The position numbers and the translations under genes were made by a program. From an uncultured Desulfurellales bacterium (GTDB lineage: Bacteria > Campylobacterota_A > Desulfurellia > Desulfurellales > Hippeaceae): a stretch of DNA of 30,588 nucleotides. Shown here one piece after another: positions 2,432-19,115 of the stretch; positions within the stretch are counted from its first letter, which is position 1; each line of letters opens with the position of its first letter. The notes under the pieces were generated by a model. That model was given only the letters and a program-made list of their open reading frames with translations, was not told the origin of the DNA and searched no databases. The stretch covers positions 1-30,588 of the forward strand of contig CAZOGA010000003.1 of assembly GCA_964579095.1 (NCBI GenBank). Direction: 5' to 3'.

Positions 2432-2626
2432 ATGACAAAAGAAAATAAAACAATAAAAGAAATATATAAATGCAAAAATTGTTCAGGTGATTTAAAATAT
2501 ATCAGAGGATTAGGATGGTGTCATATTGTTGCTACAGGTTGTGTTAATCCGCAAGTAAATAAGGAAGATTGGAAATGTTATTTAAAAAATAATAAAACTA
2601 AAATTGCCAAACAATTAAAAAAATAA
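2432..2626 (+). CDS. small Cys-rich, putative zinc-binding protein
   Basis: CKNC ... WCH ... C motifs. Confidence 0.6.
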   Translation: MTKENKTIKEIYKCKNCSGDLKYIRGLGWCHIVATGCVNPQVNKEDWKCYLKNNKTKIAKQLKK

Positions 2627-2700
2627 CTTAATAAAGATGTAAACAAACTCTATTGTTTGTAGACAAGAAGATAAAGATATAAACAAACTTTTAAAATAAA

Positions 2701-3129
2701 ATGACAAAAGAAAATGAAACCATAAAAAAAATACAAGAGTTAGTGCCTTCAATAATGGAGTTGAAATTTGGGTGTAAGGTTGTTGATGAGGAATACGGAA
2801 GAAAACATATTTATTATTTTGGAAGTGAGAATAAAGATTTTGTTTATTTGCATAAAGATAGTAAAGAAAGACAAGAATGGAAAAATAAATTTAAAGATAA
2901 TTTTAAAATACTCGGCAGACCAATTTCTCTGGAAGATATTTTAATTGCCTTAGAGAAAAAAGGAATCCCAATGAGGATTGATACAGAAGGGGAATTTCTT
3001 AAATACAAGAAAACCGATGATGATATAGGTTATAACTGGATAGAAACAGATATTTTCTGGCAACTAAACAAGCCCTTTCACGAGCAGAGCCAAAATACTA
3101 AGGACTTCATTGGAGATTTAATTAAATAG
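2701..3129 (+). CDS. hypothetical phage protein
   Basis: 142-aa ORF with typical codon usage. Confidence 0.8.
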   Translation: MTKENETIKKIQELVPSIMELKFGCKVVDEEYGRKHIYYFGSENKDFVYLHKDSKERQEWKNKFKDNFKILGRPISLEDILIALEKKGIPMRIDTEGEFLKYKKTDDDIGYNWIETDIFWQLNKPFHEQSQNTKDFIGDLIK

Positions 3130-3136
3130 GTAAATT

Positions 3137-3292
3137 ATGAAAAAAGAAAAAATAAAAATACCTAAAACAGCAAAAGAGCTAAGAAATTTAATTATTTGGG
3201 CTAAATCTGAAATAGATGAATATCAGGATTTTATTAAATTATGTGAAAAGCAAATAAAATTATTGAGAGAAAACAAAAAAAATAAACTATGA
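3137..3292 (+). CDS. small hypothetical protein (51 aa)
   Basis: Manually translated MKKEKIKIPK...; ATGA-coupled to next ORF. Confidence 0.6.
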   Translation: MKKEKIKIPKTAKELRNLIIWAKSEIDEYQDFIKLCEKQIKLLRENKKNKL

Positions 3293-3453
3293 AAAAGAAA
3301 ACTTGGGAAGAGATAAAAAAGGAAATACTCCGTAAAGACCACGCTAGGATAATCCGCTGGGCAGAGGAATATATAGAGAGGGATAAAAGAATCTGTGGCA
3401 CGGACAAACACGGAATAGCGCTGGCAGATTTGATTAGAGAGATAAACAAATGA
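3289..3453 (+). CDS. small hypothetical protein (54 aa)
   Basis: Manually translated MKKKTWEEIK...; ATGA coupling at both ends. Confidence 0.6.
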   Translation: MKKKTWEEIKKEILRKDHARIIRWAEEYIERDKRICGTDKHGIALADLIREINK

Positions 3454-3629
3454 AATTACAAAATAAATATATCTTAATAGGAATACTTCTTTTTCCTTTT
3501 ATATTGGGAATGTATATTGGAGAGATATTATCAAGAGTAGGAGAATGGATATATAAAGTGTCGGAGAAATACTTTGATAAATATGGAGAAAAAATTGTTG
3601 AGAAATTAAATTTAGAAGAAAAAGAATGA
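3450..3629 (+). CDS. small membrane protein (59 aa)
   Basis: Manually translated; hydrophobic YILIGILLFPFILGMYIG. Confidence 0.55.
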   Translation: MKLQNKYILIGILLFPFILGMYIGEILSRVGEWIYKVSEKYFDKYGEKIVEKLNLEEKE

Positions 3630-3702
3630 TTGATGATAAGATTGATAATTTCTTTAAGTATCTGATTAAGTTTTATCTATAAGGGGGTTGTGGAAAACTG
3701 AC

Positions 3703-3731
3703 TTGCAATGGTTTTAAAAATATATTAAGAT
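3703..3731 (+). promoter_or_regulatory. putative sigma70-type promoter
   Basis: TTGCAA-17-TAAGAT; ATG3741 lies about 3 nt after the expected +1, the same geometry as the 9019 promoter. Confidence 0.4.
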
Positions 3732-3740
3732 GATAATACA

Positions 3741-3908
3741 ATGAGAAAAGAAAAAATAAAACAATATAGGAATAAAGCAATAAATGATTTTTGGGACGAA
3801 CATAAAGCAGACTGGGAAATGAAAGATGTTGCTTATTTATTTAATTTGAGTTTGCCACAAATTTACAGAATATTAAAAGAGAAAAAACAAAGGTCGGAAA
3901 TAAAATAA
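3741..3908 (+). CDS. small helix-turn-helix DNA-binding protein (55 aa)
   Basis: Manually translated; MKDVAYLFNLSLPQIYRIL fits an HTH pattern. Confidence 0.65.
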   Translation: MRKEKIKQYRNKAINDFWDEHKADWEMKDVAYLFNLSLPQIYRILKEKKQRSEIK

Positions 3909-4113
3909 AATAAACTTATGAAAACTTTAATTCAAGCATTTATATACGAAGAAAAAACACAACAAGATTGCAATCATCCTAGAAAATATCAAAAGATGTT
4001 TAATTATGAAGGAGAATATCCCGCAGGAGGTGTCCGTTGCATGAAATGCGGGAAGATAATTAAACTTGTTGCTACTAATCAAGAATTAAACAAAGGTCGG
4101 AAATAAAATAAAA
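3885..4113 (+). repeat. 26-bp perfect direct repeat (3885-3910, 4088-4113) flanking ORF 3918-4106
   Basis: aaacaaaggtcggaaataaaataaaa twice, 203 bp apart. Confidence 0.9.
3918..4106 (+). CDS. small putative zinc-binding protein
   Basis: CNH ... CMKC motifs. Confidence 0.6.
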   Translation: MKTLIQAFIYEEKTQQDCNHPRKYQKMFNYEGEYPAGGVRCMKCGKIIKLVATNQELNKGRK

Positions 4114-4140
4114 AAAGCAATTAAAAATCTTTAATAAAAA

Positions 4141-4479
4141 ATGAAAAGATTATTAGAAGACCTTCAGAAAAGTAAAATTGTAAAAGTTACAGGAAGTTAT
4201 GCAGATGGCACTCAAAATGATTTTTCAGATATTGATTTTTATGTAAAACCAGACCATCCAGAATGTGAATTTCGTGGAGATAAAAGGAATATAGTAAAGA
4301 TTATAGATATATTAAACAGATATAATATAAAATGGCATTCTCAGGCACCTCTTACAATTTCTACTATAGGGTGTAAAAACAATATTGAAAAAGAACTTGA
4401 ATTTTCAGAACTTTATAAGAAAAGATTGAATAAATTAAAAGAAATAACTATAGAAGGAGTAAATTTCAAAACTTATTAA
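4141..4479 (+). CDS. minimal nucleotidyltransferase (Pol beta superfamily)
   Basis: GSYADG-x5-SDIDFYV matches the GS...DxD signature. Confidence 0.8.
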   Translation: MKRLLEDLQKSKIVKVTGSYADGTQNDFSDIDFYVKPDHPECEFRGDKRNIVKIIDILNRYNIKWHSQAPLTISTIGCKNNIEKELEFSELYKKRLNKLKEITIEGVNFKTY

Positions 4480-4498
4480 AGATTCAAAAAATAAACTT

Positions 4499-4660
4499 AT
4501 GAAAACATTAGAAGAAGTTAATTATATATGTCCTATCTGTGGAAGAGATTTAGCGGAAGACCCAGAAGATTGGATGGAAGAAATGGAGGCTTGTGTTGAA
4601 TGCGTAGCAGAGGGGCGATGTCCCCTCGAAAAGTATAATAAAATAAAAAATAACTTATGA
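4499..4660 (+). CDS. small zinc-finger protein (53 aa)
   Basis: Manually translated; CPIC ... CVEC. Confidence 0.6.
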   Translation: MKTLEEVNYICPICGRDLAEDPEDWMEEMEACVECVAEGRCPLEKYNKIKNNL

Positions 4661-11009: not shown

Positions 11010-11399
11010 ATGGCATCTGAACACGCAAAAGCAGTTGCTCAAGAAGTAATTGAAAAAGCGAGAAAAGGCGAGAAAATCAATAAGCAGGAGATTCAGATGA
11101 AACACGGCTATTCTAAAACTTCTGCTAAATCAATGAAAGCAACAATAACTAAAACTTATAAGAAAACGATGAAGCCAATTATTAAAAGTCTAATAACTGA
11201 AAGAGATAGGGCTATTGAAGAGATGAAAAAGAAAAGAAAAGACGCAAAGTATCGGGACTTATCTGATGCAGTTGATAAATTGACTAAAGTAATTCAATTA
11301 TTATCTGGCCGTGCAACAGATAGAACAGAGATATTTACTCAAGAACAAATTGATGCAATTCTCAATAGAAGAACAAAAAAAGATAGCACAAGCAGGTAG
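11010..11399 (+). CDS. terminase small subunit (putative)
   Basis: Basic helical protein with HGYSKTSA HTH-like motif directly upstream of and overlapping TerL. Confidence 0.65.
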   Translation: MASEHAKAVAQEVIEKARKGEKINKQEIQMKHGYSKTSAKSMKATITKTYKKTMKPIIKSLITERDRAIEEMKKKRKDAKYRDLSDAVDKLTKVIQLLSGRATDRTEIFTQEQIDAILNRRTKKDSTSR

Positions 11400-12777
11400 G
11401 TATGACCTTATTGATTTTTCTATTATTACTAATAGACAATATAAACCTAACTGGCACCATAATCAGATAGCAGAGAAACTAGAAGCAGTGGAAGCAGGCA
11501 AATTAAAGAGGTTAATGATATTTATGCCTCCGCGCGCTGGAAAATCTCAATTAGCGACTATTAACTTTCCTGCGTGGTATTTAGGAAGAAATCCAGATAA
11601 GGAAGTAATAACAGTCAGCTACTCTGGAGAGCTTGCATTAGACTTCGGGAGCAAGACAAGAGATTTAGTGAGGGATGAAGTTTATAATTTAATATTTAAT
11701 TTATCTTTAAGAGAAGACGAAAAAGCAAAAGGAAAATGGAGAACAAAACAAGGAGGATATTATATTAGTATGGGAATAGGCGGAACAATCACAGGCAGGG
11801 GAGCAGATATCCTATTGATTGATGACCCTATTAAAAACAGAGAGGAAGCGGAATCAGAAGTTTACCGCAACAAGGTTTGGGATTTCTACACATCCACAGC
11901 ATATACAAGACTTAATCCGGGCGGAGCAGTTATTATTATCTTGACTCGTTGGCATTTAGACGACTTAGCGGGAAGACTATTAAAGAAAGAGAGGCAAAAT
12001 TGGGAAGTGATAGAATTTCCAGCCATAGCGATAAAGGATGAGAAATACAGAAAGCAAGGTGAACCATTATGGCCGAGTAGATATTCTTTAGAAGAATATG
12101 AAAAAACAAAAGAAACAATAGGAATAATTAACTGGAATGCTTTATATCAACAAAGACCTATTTTATCAGAGAATCAAGAGTTTAAGCCCTACTGGTTCAA
12201 ATATAGGACACAAGAAGAACTTAATATATTAGAAACAAGGAACTTTATAACAATAGATACCGCAATCAGTAAGAAAGCCTCTGCGGACTATACAGGTATT
12301 TGCAGAAATTTTGTAGACAAAGAAAACAAGTGGAACATAAAGACTAATAAGTTAAGGATAAACCCTAAAGAACTAATAGACTTGCTATTTACTCTTTATG
12401 AGAAAGACAGACCAGAGAAGATAGGCATAGAAAAGACAATCTATTTACAGGCAATTAAGCCTTTCTTAGATGATGAAATGCGAAAGAGAAATAAGTTTTT
12501 ACCAATTGTGGAACTACTGCATAATCAAATCCAAAAAGAAACACGAATAAGAGGAATAATACCAAGATATGAAAGTGGTTCAATTATACATATAGAGAAT
12601 GAATGCGGAGATTTAGAAGAAGAAGCCTTGTCATTCCCTTTAGGCGCTCACGATGATGTTTTAGATAGCCTTGCTTATCAAGTTCAAATAGCAGAATCTC
12701 CAATTGGAAACGAAGCAATAAGGCGTAAAATTTTACAAAACCGCGCGCGGAGAACTAAAAACGAACTAATACCTTAA
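11353..12777 (+). CDS. terL: terminase large subunit
   Basis: Walker A MPPRAGKS, TGRGADILLIDDP, TRWHLDDLAGRL, nuclease IDTA...ADYT and HDDVLDSLAY. Confidence 0.95.
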   Translation: MQFSIEEQKKIAQAGRYDLIDFSIITNRQYKPNWHHNQIAEKLEAVEAGKLKRLMIFMPPRAGKSQLATINFPAWYLGRNPDKEVITVSYSGELALDFGSKTRDLVRDEVYNLIFNLSLREDEKAKGKWRTKQGGYYISMGIGGTITGRGADILLIDDPIKNREEAESEVYRNKVWDFYTSTAYTRLNPGGAVIIILTRWHLDDLAGRLLKKERQNWEVIEFPAIAIKDEKYRKQGEPLWPSRYSLEEYEKTKETIGIINWNALYQQRPILSENQEFKPYWFKYRTQEELNILETRNFITIDTAISKKASADYTGICRNFVDKENKWNIKTNKLRINPKELIDLLFTLYEKDRPEKIGIEKTIYLQAIKPFLDDEMRKRNKFLPIVELLHNQIQKETRIRGIIPRYESGSIIHIENECGDLEEEALSFPLGAHDDVLDSLAYQVQIAESPIGNEAIRRKILQNRARRTKNELIP

Positions 12778-13128: not shown

Positions 13129-13152
13129 AACTAATCTTAACCAACAACATTT

Positions 13153-13191
13153 GGCGGATATGGACTTAATTGTTCTGTATTCGCCTTTTTT
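13153..13191 (+). terminator. terminator-like hairpin plus U6 in portal leader
   Basis: ggcggatatgga/tctgtattcgcc 12-bp stem (3 G-U) followed by tttttt; ATG 2 nt later. Confidence 0.6.
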
Positions 13192-13192
13192 A

Positions 13193-14923
13193 ATGTCCCA
13201 AATACTTAAACAAATTAGCGACGAATTAAACTCTTATCTTACTCAGGAGGTTTTTATCTCTGAAGGATATCCGTATTCTGAACACGATTTAAAAAAGAGA
13301 ATTGTTATTTATGCTAACGGGATTTTTCCTGAAGGCAAAGTTGATAGCAAAGGGAACTATAAATACTGGTTTGATATTTGCAGTTCGCGCGTAGATGACG
13401 AGATTAAGAATATTGATTTTGACACAAAGCATATTGAAATTTATGTTGACCCGCCAAGTTCAAAATATGATACGCCTCTTTTTATCGCAAACGCACAGCT
13501 GAAAGACTTTTTAAGGGAAACCCGTCAAGCCCAAAAGATTAACGAATCTTTAGAAGAGTTTTCAGGCTGGGGGAATATTCTCTGGAAAAAGATAAAAGGA
13601 AAATACATAAAACTTGATTTGCTTAATACTTATATTATAAACACTGTTGCTAGAAGTATTAACGAAACGCCTGTAATCGAACGCTGGGAGATGACACAGA
13701 GCCAGCTAAGAGAGATGAATGGCGTATGGGACAATATTGAAGAAGTTATCAAGGAATGCGGAGACAAGCAGTTTTTGAGCGCTAAAGATGACGCAAAAAC
13801 TTATGTTCAAGATACAACAATTCCTTATTATGAGATATTTGAACGAAACGGAGAAGTTAGCGAGAAGACTTTATTTGAAGCTATGGGCAAAAAAGGCGGA
13901 AGAGAAAACAAATATCTCCTTGCCAAAATAGTTGTAGCAGGATTAGAGAAAGGAAATACCGCAGATACTAAAGTTCTATATGCCAAAGAAATTTCAAAGA
14001 TGCCATATAAAGAGGCTCACAGGGGACGCTACAATGGGCGCTGGTGGAGAACAGGCATATATGAGCTATTATTTGATGTTCAAACAAGAGTCAATGAAAT
14101 AGGCAATCAGATAGCCAGAGGGCTTGAATGGAGTTCTAAGACATTTTTTAGTACTAGCGATAGTCTATTTGTAGAGAATATCTCAACAGATATGGACAAT
14201 GGCGATGTTCTAAAGGCTAAAGATATCAGACAGATAGAAGTAAGAATGCAAGGATTTGACCAATTGGCCGCCGAATGGAATCGGATGATTGCCTTATCTA
14301 AAGATATCTGTAAATCATACGAGATAATTCAGGGTGAAACATTGCCTTCAGGAACACCATTTAGACTTGGCGCGCTAATGAATACGAACGCTAATAAGTT
14401 TTTTGATTATATCCGGGAAAAGATTGGAATAGTTTACGAAGAGATTTTCACGGATTGGATTCTTCCTGATTTAATTAAGAGCATAAAAACTAAGGATGTA
14501 ATTGAACTTGCGGGAGATTCTGAATTTATGGAGAGATATTATAAATCAATCGCAAACGCTTGGTATATTAAAAACTTGCTTGCTATCGGAGTTCATAGTC
14601 CGCAAATGGCTGAAGTGCTAATTCAAAGCAAGATTAACGAATTGAAGAAAAGACCAAAAGCCTTGATCAAGAATAATAAAGAAATGTTTATCGGATTAAA
14701 GGCAAAAGCAAAAATAGTTATTACAGGGGAAAATGTCAGAATGGCCGAAGACTTGGAAACATTAAGTTCATTTATTCAGCTAGAACAAGACCCAGCGAGG
14801 CGAGAATATTTATTAAATATGGCATACGAGAAAAAAGGATTTGATGTAGGAGCAATGCCTAAAAGCCAGCCAGAAGGAGGAGCTATACCAACTAATGCGC
14901 CCGCAGTGCCACTGCCAACATAA
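13193..14923 (+). CDS. portal protein (P22-like); start revised from 13151
   Basis: About 576 aa after TerL; WWRTGIYELLFDVQTRVNEIGNQ portal-type motif. Confidence 0.85.
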   Translation: MSQILKQISDELNSYLTQEVFISEGYPYSEHDLKKRIVIYANGIFPEGKVDSKGNYKYWFDICSSRVDDEIKNIDFDTKHIEIYVDPPSSKYDTPLFIANAQLKDFLRETRQAQKINESLEEFSGWGNILWKKIKGKYIKLDLLNTYIINTVARSINETPVIERWEMTQSQLREMNGVWDNIEEVIKECGDKQFLSAKDDAKTYVQDTTIPYYEIFERNGEVSEKTLFEAMGKKGGRENKYLLAKIVVAGLEKGNTADTKVLYAKEISKMPYKEAHRGRYNGRWWRTGIYELLFDVQTRVNEIGNQIARGLEWSSKTFFSTSDSLFVENISTDMDNGDVLKAKDIRQIEVRMQGFDQLAAEWNRMIALSKDICKSYEIIQGETLPSGTPFRLGALMNTNANKFFDYIREKIGIVYEEIFTDWILPDLIKSIKTKDVIELAGDSEFMERYYKSIANAWYIKNLLAIGVHSPQMAEVLIQSKINELKKRPKALIKNNKEMFIGLKAKAKIVITGENVRMAEDLETLSSFIQLEQDPARREYLLNMAYEKKGFDVGAMPKSQPEGGAIPTNAPAVPLPT

Positions 14924-15992: not shown

Positions 15993-16649
15993 ATGGAAGA
16001 TTCCAAAAAAGACGATAAAATTATCACTTCCGAACCTACCGAGGAAGAAAAACAAGCGGAGGCAAAAGCTTTGGAAGAAGTTAAGGATGACGAAATTCGT
16101 AGCGAAGTAATAGAAAAATACGAATTAGATGAGGAAATTGACGCTGACCTCATTAACAAAATCGTCAAAAACACCTTAGGAGAAAAGAAAGCGTTGAGCA
16201 CCGCTATTCGTCAGAAGATAAATCAGCGGACTGAAAACCAAGACCTTCGTAAGAAATACGAGGGGGACGAGAAGAACAAGATTGACGAGAACAAAAAGGT
16301 AGAAAAGATAAATCAGGATGATTTAAACACTATCCTTGATGAGCGCGACAGGAAGCGCGACCTTGATGCTCTTGATGTTTCAGACGAGCTGAAGCAAGAA
16401 ATTGAGTTCTACGCTAAGACTAAAAAGCTATCTGTCAAAAAAGCCCTTGAATCTAGCTATATCAGCTTTCTAAAAGCGAAAGAAGATAAAGCTAAGGAAG
16501 AGGAAGAGGCAGGCGCTGGAAGTGGAAGCGGAACCCATAATATCAAAAACCTTGACAAGATTGAAAGTCCTCGTAAAGCTTTTGACCTTTCTACAGAGGA
16601 AGGACGGAAACAATACGCGGAATGGAAAAAAGCCAAAAAGATGGCATAG
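15993..16649 (+). CDS. capsid scaffolding protein (putative)
   Basis: Acidic, helical 218 aa between portal cluster and MCP. Confidence 0.7.
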   Translation: MEDSKKDDKIITSEPTEEEKQAEAKALEEVKDDEIRSEVIEKYELDEEIDADLINKIVKNTLGEKKALSTAIRQKINQRTENQDLRKKYEGDEKNKIDENKKVEKINQDDLNTILDERDRKRDLDALDVSDELKQEIEFYAKTKKLSVKKALESSYISFLKAKEDKAKEEEEAGAGSGSGTHNIKNLDKIESPRKAFDLSTEEGRKQYAEWKKAKKMA

Positions 16650-16700
16650 AGTCGGTTGAGGGTTGGGGTGTTATGGAATTATAATCTAATTTTTAATTAA

Positions 16701-17915
16701 ATGAGTAATGCATTAACAGCCCTTAATAGAGAGTATTGGCTGTCCGAAGCGCAAATCATTTTCTTTAGGGAAAGTGCCGCGCTAAAGGTAGCCGCCTTAG
16801 AGTTGAGAGATACTCTGAAAAATGGTGATACCATAAATCACCCTGACATCTCTCATCCTCAAGCTGTAACATATACGAAAGGAAGCGCTATCACTAATAA
16901 GGATAGATTCAGCGCGAATCAGCAATTATCAGTAGCCACTGCAAAGGTAGTTCCTTTTTATGTTGACGAAATTGACAGGATTCAGAATGATTTTGTTACA
17001 CAACAGAGAATGGCGCAAGATGGACAAAGACAATTAAACAACACCCTTGACCAATTTGTAAACTATCTTGGCGTTAATAACGCAACAAGTTATGTTGACG
17101 CAGGGGATGTTGGCGGAAGTTCAGGAAGCAATATAGCGTTGACTGTTTCAAACATTGACCAAGTAGCAACTGCTTTTGACACCAAGCTTAATACGCTAGA
17201 TGTTCCTCAAGGCAACAGATTCATAATGTTTGGGCCGAGGTCTAAGGCAGTTTTGAATAGATATCTTGGCGGAAAAGAGACTTCAATGGGTGATATTATT
17301 GGACAGAATGGCAGAATGCCTAACAGATTCGGATTTGAACCGTTCTATTCCAATAACAATTACTACACAGCCACTTGGACACCAGCTGATAATCCTACAG
17401 CAGGCGACACTGTAACGATTAACGGCGCTGTGTATGAGTTTGTAGCCGTGCCTGACACAGACGAGGCTTCAACTGCTTATATTGGAGTAGATATTGGCGG
17501 AAGCACTGCTGTAACGCTTGATAACCTTGTCGCCGCTATAAACGATAGCGGAACAGAGGGGACTACTTACGGCACAACTGACGCTAATAACTGGAGAGCG
17601 CGCTGGAAGACAGTTAAAGCAGGCGTTGTTGCTACTGACGGGACTTCTTATATCTCAATAAAAGGTTATGGAGATATTGTTGTTTCTGCCTCTGAGTCAG
17701 CTGATGTTTGGTCTTCTCAGACTTCTTATGTTTTAGCTGGATTAAGAAAATCAGTTAGCTTAGTAACGCAGGTTTCTCCTGATATTTCTGTCAGACCAGT
17801 AGACAATAAACTAGGAAATAATATCTTTGTATGGACTCTTTACGGAGGGACTGTATTTAACGATATGAAGGACGCCTTAGTTTTCGCCAAAATCGACGCA
17901 AGTGATTGGAATTGA
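16701..17915 (+). CDS. major capsid protein (P22-coat-like, HK97 fold)
   Basis: GDTINHP, GFEPFYSNN and WTLYGGTV motifs; position after scaffold. Confidence 0.88.
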   Translation: MSNALTALNREYWLSEAQIIFFRESAALKVAALELRDTLKNGDTINHPDISHPQAVTYTKGSAITNKDRFSANQQLSVATAKVVPFYVDEIDRIQNDFVTQQRMAQDGQRQLNNTLDQFVNYLGVNNATSYVDAGDVGGSSGSNIALTVSNIDQVATAFDTKLNTLDVPQGNRFIMFGPRSKAVLNRYLGGKETSMGDIIGQNGRMPNRFGFEPFYSNNNYYTATWTPADNPTAGDTVTINGAVYEFVAVPDTDEASTAYIGVDIGGSTAVTLDNLVAAINDSGTEGTTYGTTDANNWRARWKTVKAGVVATDGTSYISIKGYGDIVVSASESADVWSSQTSYVLAGLRKSVSLVTQVSPDISVRPVDNKLGNNIFVWTLYGGTVFNDMKDALVFAKIDASDWN

Positions 17916-18652
17916 TAGATAACTAATACTCTTACGCCCCCGACACAATGACTGAAGAACATAAACAAAAAATAAAACAGAAATTAAAAGGGAGACATCT
18001 TTCTACAATAACTGAATTTAAGAAGGGACATAAATTCTCGCCTGAAATTTTGGAAAAGATAAAGCAAGCTCTTAAGGGAAACATTCCTTGGAATAAAGGA
18101 TTAACTGGAGTTATGCCTATTCCGTGGAATAAAGGAAAAAAAGAAATTCGTCCTGATGTTATTAAGAAAATGAGTGAAGCAAGAAGAAACAAAACCCTTT
18201 CTGAAGAAACGAAGAAAAAAATTAGTCAATCTAATAGAGGAAAAAAGAAAAAATACAAAATTAGCAAAGAACAATTAAGTAAAATTAGAAAAGAACAATA
18301 CCGAAAGCAAATTTTAAATGGAAAGCATCCGAGGTGGAAAGGAGGAATAACGCCATTAGTAGAACAAATAAGACATTGTTTCAAATATCGTCAATGGCGT
18401 TCAGATGTATTTACAAGAGATGATTTTACTTGCCAAAATTGTGGAATAAGAGGAAGCATATTAAACGCTCATCATATTAAAGAATTTAATAAGATAATTG
18501 AAGAAAATAATATCAAAACATTTCAAGAAGCGTTGGATTGTGATGAATTATGGAATATCAATAATGGCGAAACTCTTTGCAAAGAATGTCATAAGAAAAG
18601 ACACTTGGTCATTGTGTCGGGGGACATAAGAGTGATTGGAATTAATAGATAA
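17901..18652 (+). mobile_element. HNH cassette bounded by 22-bp direct repeats and long inverted repeats
   Basis: DR agtgattggaatt(g/a)atagataa at 17901-17922 and 18631-18652; IR 17937-17952/18608-18623 (16 bp perfect), extendable to 17923/18639. Confidence 0.8.
17948..18652 (+). CDS. HNH homing endonuclease with NUMOD3-like repeats
   Basis: SEETKKKISQS and IPWNKG repeats; FTCQNCG...AHHIK...NGETLCKECH. Confidence 0.88.
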   Translation: MTEEHKQKIKQKLKGRHLSTITEFKKGHKFSPEILEKIKQALKGNIPWNKGLTGVMPIPWNKGKKEIRPDVIKKMSEARRNKTLSEETKKKISQSNRGKKKKYKISKEQLSKIRKEQYRKQILNGKHPRWKGGITPLVEQIRHCFKYRQWRSDVFTRDDFTCQNCGIRGSILNAHHIKEFNKIIEENNIKTFQEALDCDELWNINNGETLCKECHKKRHLVIVSGDIRVIGINR

Positions 18653-18654
18653 TC

Positions 18655-18691
18655 AGTTTATTGCGCTCCTGATTTAGGGGCGCAATAAGCT
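18655..18691 (+). other. 16-bp RNA hairpin
   Basis: agtttattgcgctcct-gattt-aggggcgcaataagct, 2 G-U pairs; no U-tract. Confidence 0.7.
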
Positions 18692-18698
18692 CTATTCT

Positions 18699-19115
18699 AT
18701 GGAAGATGAAAACAAAATTACAACAATAGCAATTACTTTATTGGGAATTGTTGCAGTTGTTGCGTTGATTTTTACTGGCGGGAATGTTGTAACACAAGAC
18801 CAGCCTATCGGCGGATTAGTTCATAATGTTAAAGAGATATTTACGAATGGATTGACTGCGGAAGGGACTCTCACGGCTAAAGATGCAACATTTTCGAGCA
18901 CGGTAGCTGTAACAGGGGTTTCAACCTTATCAGATGAGCTGAAGGTAAACAGGACAGCGAGTTCTACTATTCAAGTAGGAAGCACTGCCTCAGGAGTAGG
19001 AACAGGATGTCTAATATTGGGAGATTCTGGCGCTTCTACTACACAGCCTGTATATATAACGGCAACAGGAGCGACTATTACAGCAACAACAACGAAACCA
19101 GCAATTTGCCAATAA
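18699..19115 (+). CDS. putative structural protein with N-terminal membrane anchor
   Basis: ITTIAITLLGIVAVVALIFTGG followed by Thr/Gly/Ser-rich beta sequence. Confidence 0.7.
   Translation: MEDENKITTIAITLLGIVAVVALIFTGGNVVTQDQPIGGLVHNVKEIFTNGLTAEGTLTAKDATFSSTVAVTGVSTLSDELKVNRTASSTIQVGSTASGVGTGCLILGDSGASTTQPVYITATGATITATTTKPAICQ

Follow-up and report, generated by a model that had tools for sequence, protein, structure and literature searches.

A predicted long-range helix between the start region of a phage HNH homing-endonuclease gene and its own 3' coding sequence

The window, by which we mean the whole 30,588-nt stretch of DNA analysed here, is a segment of a tailed-phage genome in which every gene lies on the + strand. 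Genes for a large terminase (11311-12777), a portal-like protein (13151-14923) and a scaffold-like acidic protein (15993-16649) precede the major capsid protein (MCP) gene, an ORF of 404 aa (16701..17915) whose product ends in ...DASDWN* and matches PHROG 267, 'major head protein', with E = 8.5e-14. The MCP has 202 homologues, many of which match Pfam PF25209 (Phage_capsid_4); as a single query against viral contigs it found no match, and capsid relatives on such contigs were reached with an alignment query. Behind the capsid gene lies an ORF of 234 aa (17948..18652) recognized by Pfam and by PHROG HNH families, with NUMOD3 repeats at its N-terminus (25.2 bits, cut-off 20.4) and an HNH nuclease domain at its C-terminus (23.4 bits, cut-off 21.4). 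The presence of both an HNH domain and a DNA-binding module identifies the product as a free-standing HNH homing endonuclease, and the Cys/His/Asn motif columns of the HNH domain show no variation in alignment A1. Homologues of the protein number 2256; isolated phages contain no near relative, the best match having 44% identity over 40% of the protein, and a search of solved structures by sequence gave no match. A terminator-like 17-bp hairpin (18655..18691, + strand) follows the HNH ORF, and tail genes lie downstream of it.

How is this nuclease gene expressed? Upstream of the capsid gene, a promoter-like site (TTGAGG-18-TATAAT, 16656..16685, + strand) agrees with the consensus at 10/12 positions; it is a consensus match only, and likely marks the transcript start of a joint capsid and HNH mRNA. 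A search for a terminator-like site between the MCP and HNH genes found none, and in the window no convincing promoter site was found between the 5' arm described below and the HNH ATG, so that the nuclease gene probably shares the abundant capsid mRNA, as its 3' part. Shine-Dalgarno motifs are absent from the gene leaders of this phage, which are A/T-rich; the HNH leader alone is C-rich.

The nuclease gene arrived as an insertion. In the closely related locus L013, whose MCP is 89% identical in protein and 85.5% in DNA (1039/1215 nt), the MCP stop is directly followed by the same 17-bp hairpin and then by the same next gene, and there is no HNH gene. Removal of 730 nt (17923..18652), comprising the HNH cassette and one repeat copy, makes the window collinear with L013, gapless at the junction; the cassette is thus an insertion between the capsid stop and the terminator-like hairpin, and its presence and absence at the same site in close relatives are what is expected of a homing-endonuclease gene. 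Its GC content is 0.31, against 0.40-0.44 in the flanks. The insertion is bounded by a 22-nt direct repeat, 21/22 identical, with a left copy (17901..17922) made up of the last five capsid codons, TGA and TAGATAA, and a right copy (18631..18652) that has TAA in place of this TGA. The repeat is unique to the HNH locus within the window, and shuffled sequences do not yield one like it. The HNH stop codon lies inside the right copy, which is contiguous with the ancestral downstream sequence; the repeat is a duplication of the capsid 3' end, its right copy being the displaced original, which now supplies the nuclease gene with its stop codon. Flanking direct repeats differ in length between loci (22 nt in the window, 9 nt in L006 and 13 nt in L137, two loci discussed below), a variation that, we infer, speaks more for illegitimate first insertions that left scars than for a duplication defined by an enzyme.

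Two other origins of the arrangement were considered and rejected. For a group I intron carrying an endonuclease ORF, or another known RNA, Rfam gave no match in 17500-19000, in L006 or in L137, in a search that did detect a group I intron in the capsid gene of L163. Between the left repeat copy and the 5' arm there are only 5 nt, and the capsid ORF is complete without splicing. Nor was the HNH gene inserted into the loop of an older hairpin, since no stem of this kind exists in the empty-site relative L013, and downstream of the cassette the ancestral terminator hairpin is still intact. A post-capsid hairpin in another locus, L015, has its arms in the opposite order.

The start of the HNH ORF and its end are complementary to one another. 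As originally described, the HNH ATG (17948-17950) falls within the left arm of a perfect 16-bp duplex whose partner lies 655 nt downstream, and the coordinates are confirmed: 17937-17952 (CCCCCGACACAATGAC) and 18608-18623 (GTCATTGTGTCGGGGG) are complementary at 16/16 positions. A second segment, 17928-17941, is 86% complementary to 18620-18633 with a one-base offset. Together these form a 5' arm at 17923..17955 (outer part 17923-17934, perfect core 17937-17952, inner G.U extension 17953-17955) and a 3' arm at 18605..18639, both read on the + strand, which can assemble into a helix of about 33 bp with two small bulges, four G.U pairs and an energy of -47.9 kcal/mol; 20 of its pairs are unbroken, there are 12 more besides, and the core is G+C-rich. 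The 3' arm corresponds to HNH codons 220-231; its core encodes VIVSG, in a C-terminal tail that is not conserved, and it ends in the 9 nt with which the right direct-repeat copy begins. With up to 3 mismatches allowed, the arm occurs at only two places in the 30.6-kb window, where shuffled sequences lead one to expect 0.05 and none of 100 reaches two. The inverted repeat is real and beyond chance.

Partition-function folding of 17880-18700, the check suggested along with the original prediction, yields probabilities no lower than 0.998 for the 16 core pairs, in this 821-nt context as well as in a 2011-nt capsid and HNH transcript, and the minimum free energy and centroid structures of the region both hold the helix (z = -5.07). 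In an RNA that stops short of the 3' arm, the AUG and its surroundings (nt 17943-17952) are predicted to be unpaired with a probability of 0.8-1.0. The HNH initiation region has the lowest predicted accessibility among 20 genes of the window. In silico, then, a stable structure covers the initiation region of a gene on a read-through transcript, as for I-TevI and mobE, and the 5' initiation region is predicted to pair with the 3' end of its own mRNA, as in type I toxin messages. The left arm had also been credited with two mutually exclusive folds. An alternative pairing of CUAAUACU with 17901-17909 is indeed possible, but it is a trivial result of the direct repeat, 17901-17909 being a copy of 18631-18639; only the outer 8 bp are contested in this way, not the core with the AUG, so that the AUG is not freed.

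Is the pairing conserved? A search of 5.8 billion proteins returned a single near relative of the HNH protein, P0002, with 57% identity, found on three short contigs (L006-L008) from three samples. In L006 the gene directly follows an MCP-type 3' end (...NASSWV*), at the same post-capsid site as in the window, and this site is the sole location at which an element of the window/L006 type was found. The L006 cassette is flanked by its 9-nt direct repeat and carries an inverted repeat of 26 nt, 88% complementary, that ends 3 nt before the ATG and has its partner in the last codons of the ORF. The arms are homologous to those of the window but have diverged: of the 16 core pairs that align, 9 are the same and 5 differ on both sides, with 1 turned into G.U and 1 broken; 14/500 shuffle controls reach this level of covariation. 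Mismatches in L006 are G.U on the sense strand only. The two loci share the 3'-arm motif ATTGTGTYGGGG, read in frame 0 in the window and in frame 1 in L006, and the C-terminal tails of the two proteins are unrelated peptides, so that it is the nucleotides, and not the peptide, that are conserved. Identical nucleotides in different frames are compatible with an RNA lock and with a DNA terminus alike.

We surveyed the HNH family of the window (L001-L098), a second HNH family reached through L137 (L182-L257) and capsid-relative loci (L099-L181), scoring the best ungapped Watson-Crick complement between a start region (ATG-60..+25) and a 3' region (stop-150..+60) and calling a score of at least 16 strong. 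Seven of 130 HNH loci were strong when their own start and 3' regions were compared, against 1/1500 non-cognate pairs (mean 7.4, sd 1.2). The subset with enough flank for shifted controls contained 6/99 strong cognate pairs; by comparison, no strong score arose for the upstream 85 nt against the 3' region (0/99), for the start region against sequence beyond the 3' end of the gene (0/99) or for an internal 85 nt against the 3' region (0/70). Other ORFs in the sampled loci gave 0/498 (Fisher p = 1.8e-5). The pairing enrichment is thus specific to the start region against the 3' region. Both this recurrence, absent from control genes, and the covariation among homologues support the proposal that a sense-strand RNA helix closes the HNH initiation region against the gene's own 3' end. 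The original prediction named homologues that show no covariation as a ground for refuting it, and on this point it holds up.

The seven strong loci fall into four unrelated arm types: window/L006, L137, L229/L231/L191 and L201. In the window and L006 the 3' arm lies within the C-terminal tail. In the L137 type, to which L258-L261 were added later, the arms cover -21..+8 around the ATG and the 3' arm encodes the catalytic HNH motif IQPLC(K/R)SCNS; in L229 and L231 they cover -24..-2 and in L191 -24..+8, with the DHIIP motif encoded by the 3' arm. Both L137/L258 and L229/L191 have an internal 3' arm that lies 40-130 nt ahead of the stop, and in the L201 type the arms flank the ORF. Three of the four lineages have the left arm on the initiation region, and the fourth has it ahead of the ATG; across lineages the partner is 340-655 nt away, in the gene's own 3' coding region. 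L137, L258 and L191 directly follow a capsid gene, as in the window. The four unrelated arm sequences indicate that related nuclease genes evolved the start-to-3'-end arrangement independently.

Most family members have no such repeat, including some at post-capsid sites (e.g., L105), and the idea that the repeat is a trait of the whole window-type HNH family was rejected, since out of 85 loci none stood out except the window and L006. A repeat in L161 (4282-4298 / 4619-4635) was dismissed because its left arm lies on the capsid stop rather than on an HNH start, and also because the contig stops short of the HNH 3' end. An apparent similarity between the leaders of the window and L137 (ACTCTTA...ATGACTGAAGAA) is partly an effect of the NUMOD3 repeats. 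The N-terminus of the window's HNH protein aligns with the L137 protein from residue 18 onward.

Compensatory changes are seen in the other lineages as well. The HNH proteins of L137 and L258 are 56% identical, and 3/30 helix pairs have changed on both sides, among them the replacement of AAG by CGG in the 3' arm, a Lys-to-Arg change, which is answered by CUU to CCG in the 5' UTR. Four further changes are one-sided, and 4/4 give G.U on the sense strand; this helix has just two positions that are unpaired throughout, the A of the AUG and the A that follows it. Between L229 and L191, 2/23 pairs have changed on both sides (AAU/AUU to CAG/CUG). Shuffle controls reach the observed values in 52/500 cases for L137 and L258 and in 130/500 for L229 and L191, and these controls are weak since each comparison involves two distinct sequences. 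The structure is thus conserved with compensatory changes in three lineage pairs, each tested on two distinct sequences. Compensatory change in an inverted repeat can also come about through homogenisation of the arms at the DNA level.

Does the helix act as RNA or as DNA? The G-U pairs had been taken to point to RNA. Four are indeed present in the helix of the window, where the sense duplex has -47.9 kcal/mol and the antisense one -45.9 kcal/mol. The sense duplex is the more stable in 6/7 cases, the exception being L137 (antisense -40.4, sense -36.2 kcal/mol). Departures from pairing comprise about seven G.U of the sense type against three A.C of the antisense type, two of which are forced by the AUG, and one-sided substitutions mostly yield G.U on the sense strand. 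As evidence for RNA, this wobble-pair asymmetry is only suggestive. The position of the arms speaks to the same question: in two of the four lineages the 3' arm lies inside the ORF, which excludes a role as the terminus of a DNA element for those two. Also in favour of RNA are the place of the other arm, on or just ahead of the start in every lineage, and the specificity of the enrichment described above. For the window and L006, whose arms are terminal and adjoin direct repeats, a DNA-terminus role keeps some probability.

On evidence that is computational throughout, we propose the following model, which we hold to be probable: the HNH start is subject to a long-range translational lock formed by pairing with the gene's own 3' coding sequence. 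In the capsid transcript, a stretch of 33 nt that includes the HNH AUG (17923-17955) would pair with 18605-18639, 655 nt downstream in the same ORF. Given that there is no Shine-Dalgarno sequence and that leaders are otherwise A/U-rich and open, burial of the AUG should block initiation. The AUG would be open only while the RNA is nascent, for the time needed to transcribe about 655 nt, and closed thereafter. This agrees with the earlier suggestion of brief nascent translation followed by silencing, in that the partition function predicts an open state for the nascent RNA and a closed one for the complete RNA. The amount of nuclease made from each capsid transcript would accordingly stay below a low ceiling. 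A ribosome terminating at the capsid stop (17913-17915), 8 nt from the base of the helix, could melt the outer pairs only. Since codons 220-231 make up the 3' arm, a ribosome that is translating the HNH ORF may transiently reopen the start, and we speculate that this could give bursts of translation. We infer that the helix forms in vivo and represses translation, and that the selected benefit is a limited dose of a potentially harmful nuclease.

Could the helix serve mainly as a substrate for an RNase III-type enzyme, or as a device that loops the insertion out? The 20 contiguous pairs and 12 more would suffice for RNase III-type recognition, for which about 20 bp or more are needed. A cut there would detach the HNH ORF from the capsid message and would also destroy the initiation region of the nuclease gene. 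In the other version, the stem would bring the capsid stop beside the terminator hairpin and so keep the capsid mRNA stable despite the insertion; the arms in the window and L006 sit at the insertion ends, 8 nt past the capsid stop and 15 nt before the hairpin, and in the empty-site relative the hairpin directly follows the capsid stop. Both versions would silence the nuclease too and in this respect overlap with a translational lock. In L137/L258 and L229/L191, however, the 3' arm is internal, so the whole insertion is not looped out, and the helix is nonetheless at the initiation region; a cut capsid mRNA, moreover, would lose its 3' hairpin. We regard processing or insulation as the main role as unlikely. 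The further proposal that an RNase III-type cut excises the ORF, possibly as a circle, gained no support, as nothing points to ligation or circles.

The arms could instead be terminal inverted repeats of a mobile cassette and the direct repeats target-site duplications, the inverted repeat then serving insertion or excision of DNA, for example with the NUMOD3/HNH protein bound at both ends. This would account for the co-evolution of the arms and, in the window and L006, for their position at the exact boundaries of the insertion, next to direct repeats of 22 nt and 9 nt respectively; L137 also has its 13-nt flanking repeat. Yet the duplications (9, 13 and 22 nt) have no fixed length, the window contains no transposase or integrase domain that we could find and no further MITE-like copies of the arm or the direct repeat, and the window/L006 element is known only from the post-capsid site. 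Arms are terminal in the window and L006 and internal in two other lineages; one arm is always at the start region, and the L006 mismatches favour the sense strand. We give DNA termini only a slim chance. The repeat might also be a neutral by-product of template switching or quasi-palindrome correction during replication or repair of homing breaks, persisting without function. The break repair that is part of homing is prone to template switching, and most HNH loci lack such repeats. Enrichment is nevertheless confined to the start region against the 3' coding region, with 0/268 in shifted controls in addition to the other ORFs; the helices persist with compensatory changes across 43-44% protein divergence; and three of four lineages have their left arm over the initiation region. 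We consider a neutral origin quite improbable.

How does the proposed translational lock compare with known systems? The original prediction had drawn analogies to I-TevI and to hok, and both kinds of structure, those that occlude ribosome-binding sites (RBSs) and 5'-3' locks, are established (PMC2988022, PMC6733600). In I-TevI, I-TevII, I-TevIII, segB and Aeh1 mobE, local hairpins hide the RBS on read-through transcripts, and late promoters inside the T4-type hairpins relieve the block (PMC2988022). The present case resembles these in that a phage homing-endonuclease gene sits on a read-through transcript with its initiation region buried in a predicted RNA structure. It differs in that the T4-type structure is a local hairpin of tens of nt over a Shine-Dalgarno sequence, while here the partner is 340-655 nt off. 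The window also lacks a Shine-Dalgarno sequence, its predicted helix takes in the AUG itself, and a search for an internal promoter whose transcripts would lack the inhibitory arm found none. In L229, L191 and L201 the 5' arm does contain an extended -10-like motif (TGGTATAAT or TGGTATCAT), 6 nt upstream of the ATG in L229 and L191 and 14 nt upstream in L201. L229 and L191 have a mismatch at the same arm position, a T that creates the 'TG' of this motif, and in L229 it is the sole mismatch. Transcripts from such an own promoter inside the 5' arm would lack the arm, by the same logic as in I-TevI.

Type I toxin mRNAs, such as those with hok/sok fold-back inhibition and Helicobacter aapA/IsoA, contain a 5'-3' long-distance interaction supported by covariation, to which metastable hairpins, antisense RNAs and 3' trimming are added (PMC6733600). 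The shared features are an mRNA for a potentially harmful protein, a 5' initiation region paired with the 3' end, and covariation support. Unlike these mRNAs, whose metastable hairpins block the nascent RNA, the HNH message is predicted to have an open AUG while nascent; antisense RNA and activating 3' trimming are not known for the HNH cassette, and the HNH protein is a mobile nuclease in a phage late operon whereas type I toxins belong to toxin-antitoxin loci. Homing-endonuclease genes are enriched near capsid, terminase and RNR genes (PMC10448857); the cassette likewise adjoins a capsid gene and is present or absent between close relatives, and RNA structures or flanking repeats are not described in that study. 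A further parallel comes from long-distance interactions in RNA coliphages, such as the Min Jou interaction of phage MS2, in which the replicase start is masked by a distant coding segment and opened by a passing ribosome. The MS2 partner lies in the upstream coat gene, whose translation activates replicase, whereas the HNH partner lies in the same ORF, so that only ribosomes already on the HNH ORF can reopen its start. Literature searches turned up no account of a homing-endonuclease mRNA that is locked through the 3' coding region of the same gene. The RBS-sequestering hairpins of T4-type endonucleases are known; what appears new is the predicted long-range partner in the gene's own 3' coding region.

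Is the lock a peculiarity of a few loci or a broader design? Free-standing nuclease genes in phage late operons may have converged on self-locking through their own 3' coding regions as a general design, which seems to us an even call. For the window and L006 one may also imagine that the HNH/NUMOD3 protein mobilises a cassette bounded by terminal inverted repeats, generating target duplications of variable length, with the RNA lock as a secondary use. This would offer a transposon-like route for a homing-endonuclease gene, and we think it very improbable; convergent design is the more likely of the two.

Selfish nuclease genes need enough expression to spread and too little to harm the phage that carries them, and the known solution is a local hairpin over the RBS. 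In the arrangement proposed here, the gene's own distal coding sequence would serve as the anti-start element, and in some lineages the 5' UTR tracks codon changes in a catalytic motif. The capsid 3' end of this phage group appears to be a recurrent landing site for several kinds of mobile element. If confirmed, the long-range lock would provide a simple rule for how mobile genes insulate themselves in highly expressed operons, and would mean that the sequence coding for a nuclease active site can be under RNA-pairing constraint. It would also represent a natural co-transcriptional time window for translation without Shine-Dalgarno sequences, and a compact design for self-limiting expression cassettes.

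Three post-capsid insertions have flanking direct repeats, and in each of them the right repeat copy contains the stop codon of the HNH ORF (18650-18652 in the window, 822-824 in L006, the closest HNH homologue, and 4423-4425 in the related locus L137). The ORF thus seems to have had no stop codon of its own when it was inserted. Along window positions 17600-18800, base composition dips to 0.31 GC across the HNH cassette, whereas the capsid gene and the downstream sequence have 0.40-0.44. The 16-nt core arms of the window helix are 62% G+C. The window and L137 share 26 identical nucleotides (17952-17977 and 3811-3836, respectively), and their N-terminal NUMOD3 modules are 52% identical, whereas their nuclease domains belong to different HNH families (PF01844/PF13391 type in the window, PF01844/PF14279 type in L137). 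This pairing of like modules with unlike nucleases indicates domain shuffling between elements that have a landing site in common.

A third landing site close to the capsid 3' end is found in L258 (840-1465) and in L259-L261 (compare L163, ~3950-4600). In these loci the capsid ORF runs into the insertion, ending ...MQKSELCL*, and is followed by a 138-aa HNH gene, the displaced capsid C-terminus (YGKKTFADGADGLVDINVDSSSWA*), which looks like a second exon, and a further HNH gene that carries the lock, the predicted long-range helix between the start region and the 3' coding region. Two nuclease genes thus stand in tandem. Homing-endonuclease genes of two kinds are stacked in L229, where a LAGLIDADG-type ORF (LSYLAGFFDGEGCI..., 2538-2951) adjoins the 3' end of the HNH gene, with a scaffold-like gene on one side and the following genes on the other.

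In two relatives the capsid gene is itself interrupted. A group I intron (2758-3005; Rfam RF00028, 77.5 bits) splits that of L163 (IMGVR_UViG_3300031227_003131) after ...VVPFYVDK, and the capsid gene of L161 (IMGVR_UViG_3300014204_003207, 2501-4292) is broken at the identical site, into pieces at 2501 to ~2770 and 3429-4292. Between them lies a different HNH ORF (2994-3323); the gap probably represents an intron that carries this ORF, although Rfam does not detect one there. Beyond the L161 capsid stop comes an HNH gene of the window type, which is cut off by the end of the contig.

An extended -10-like motif, either TGGTATAAT or TGGTATCAT, lies 6-14 nt upstream of the ATG within the 5' arms of L229 (1740-1762), L191 (1971-1993) and L201 (1953-1990). 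Transcripts initiated from such a promoter would have little or no leader and so would not include the inhibitory arm. L229 and L191 share the position of one arm mismatch, which is the sole mismatch in L229; the mismatched base is the T that creates the 'TG' of the motif.

Among 498 control ORFs in HNH loci, a single non-HNH ORF, 162 aa long (L239, 761-1249) and matching neither HNH query, scored at least 14 for complementarity between start and 3' regions. It is bracketed by a 26-nt inverted repeat (718-743/1261-1286, 85% complementary), both arms of which lie outside the ORF.

No Shine-Dalgarno motif precedes any of the phage gene starts in the window (e.g., 16671-16700, 18669-18698), where A and T predominate in the leaders. 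A hint at the host group comes from P0222, a capsid homologue encoded on a Patescibacteria contig of 259 kb.
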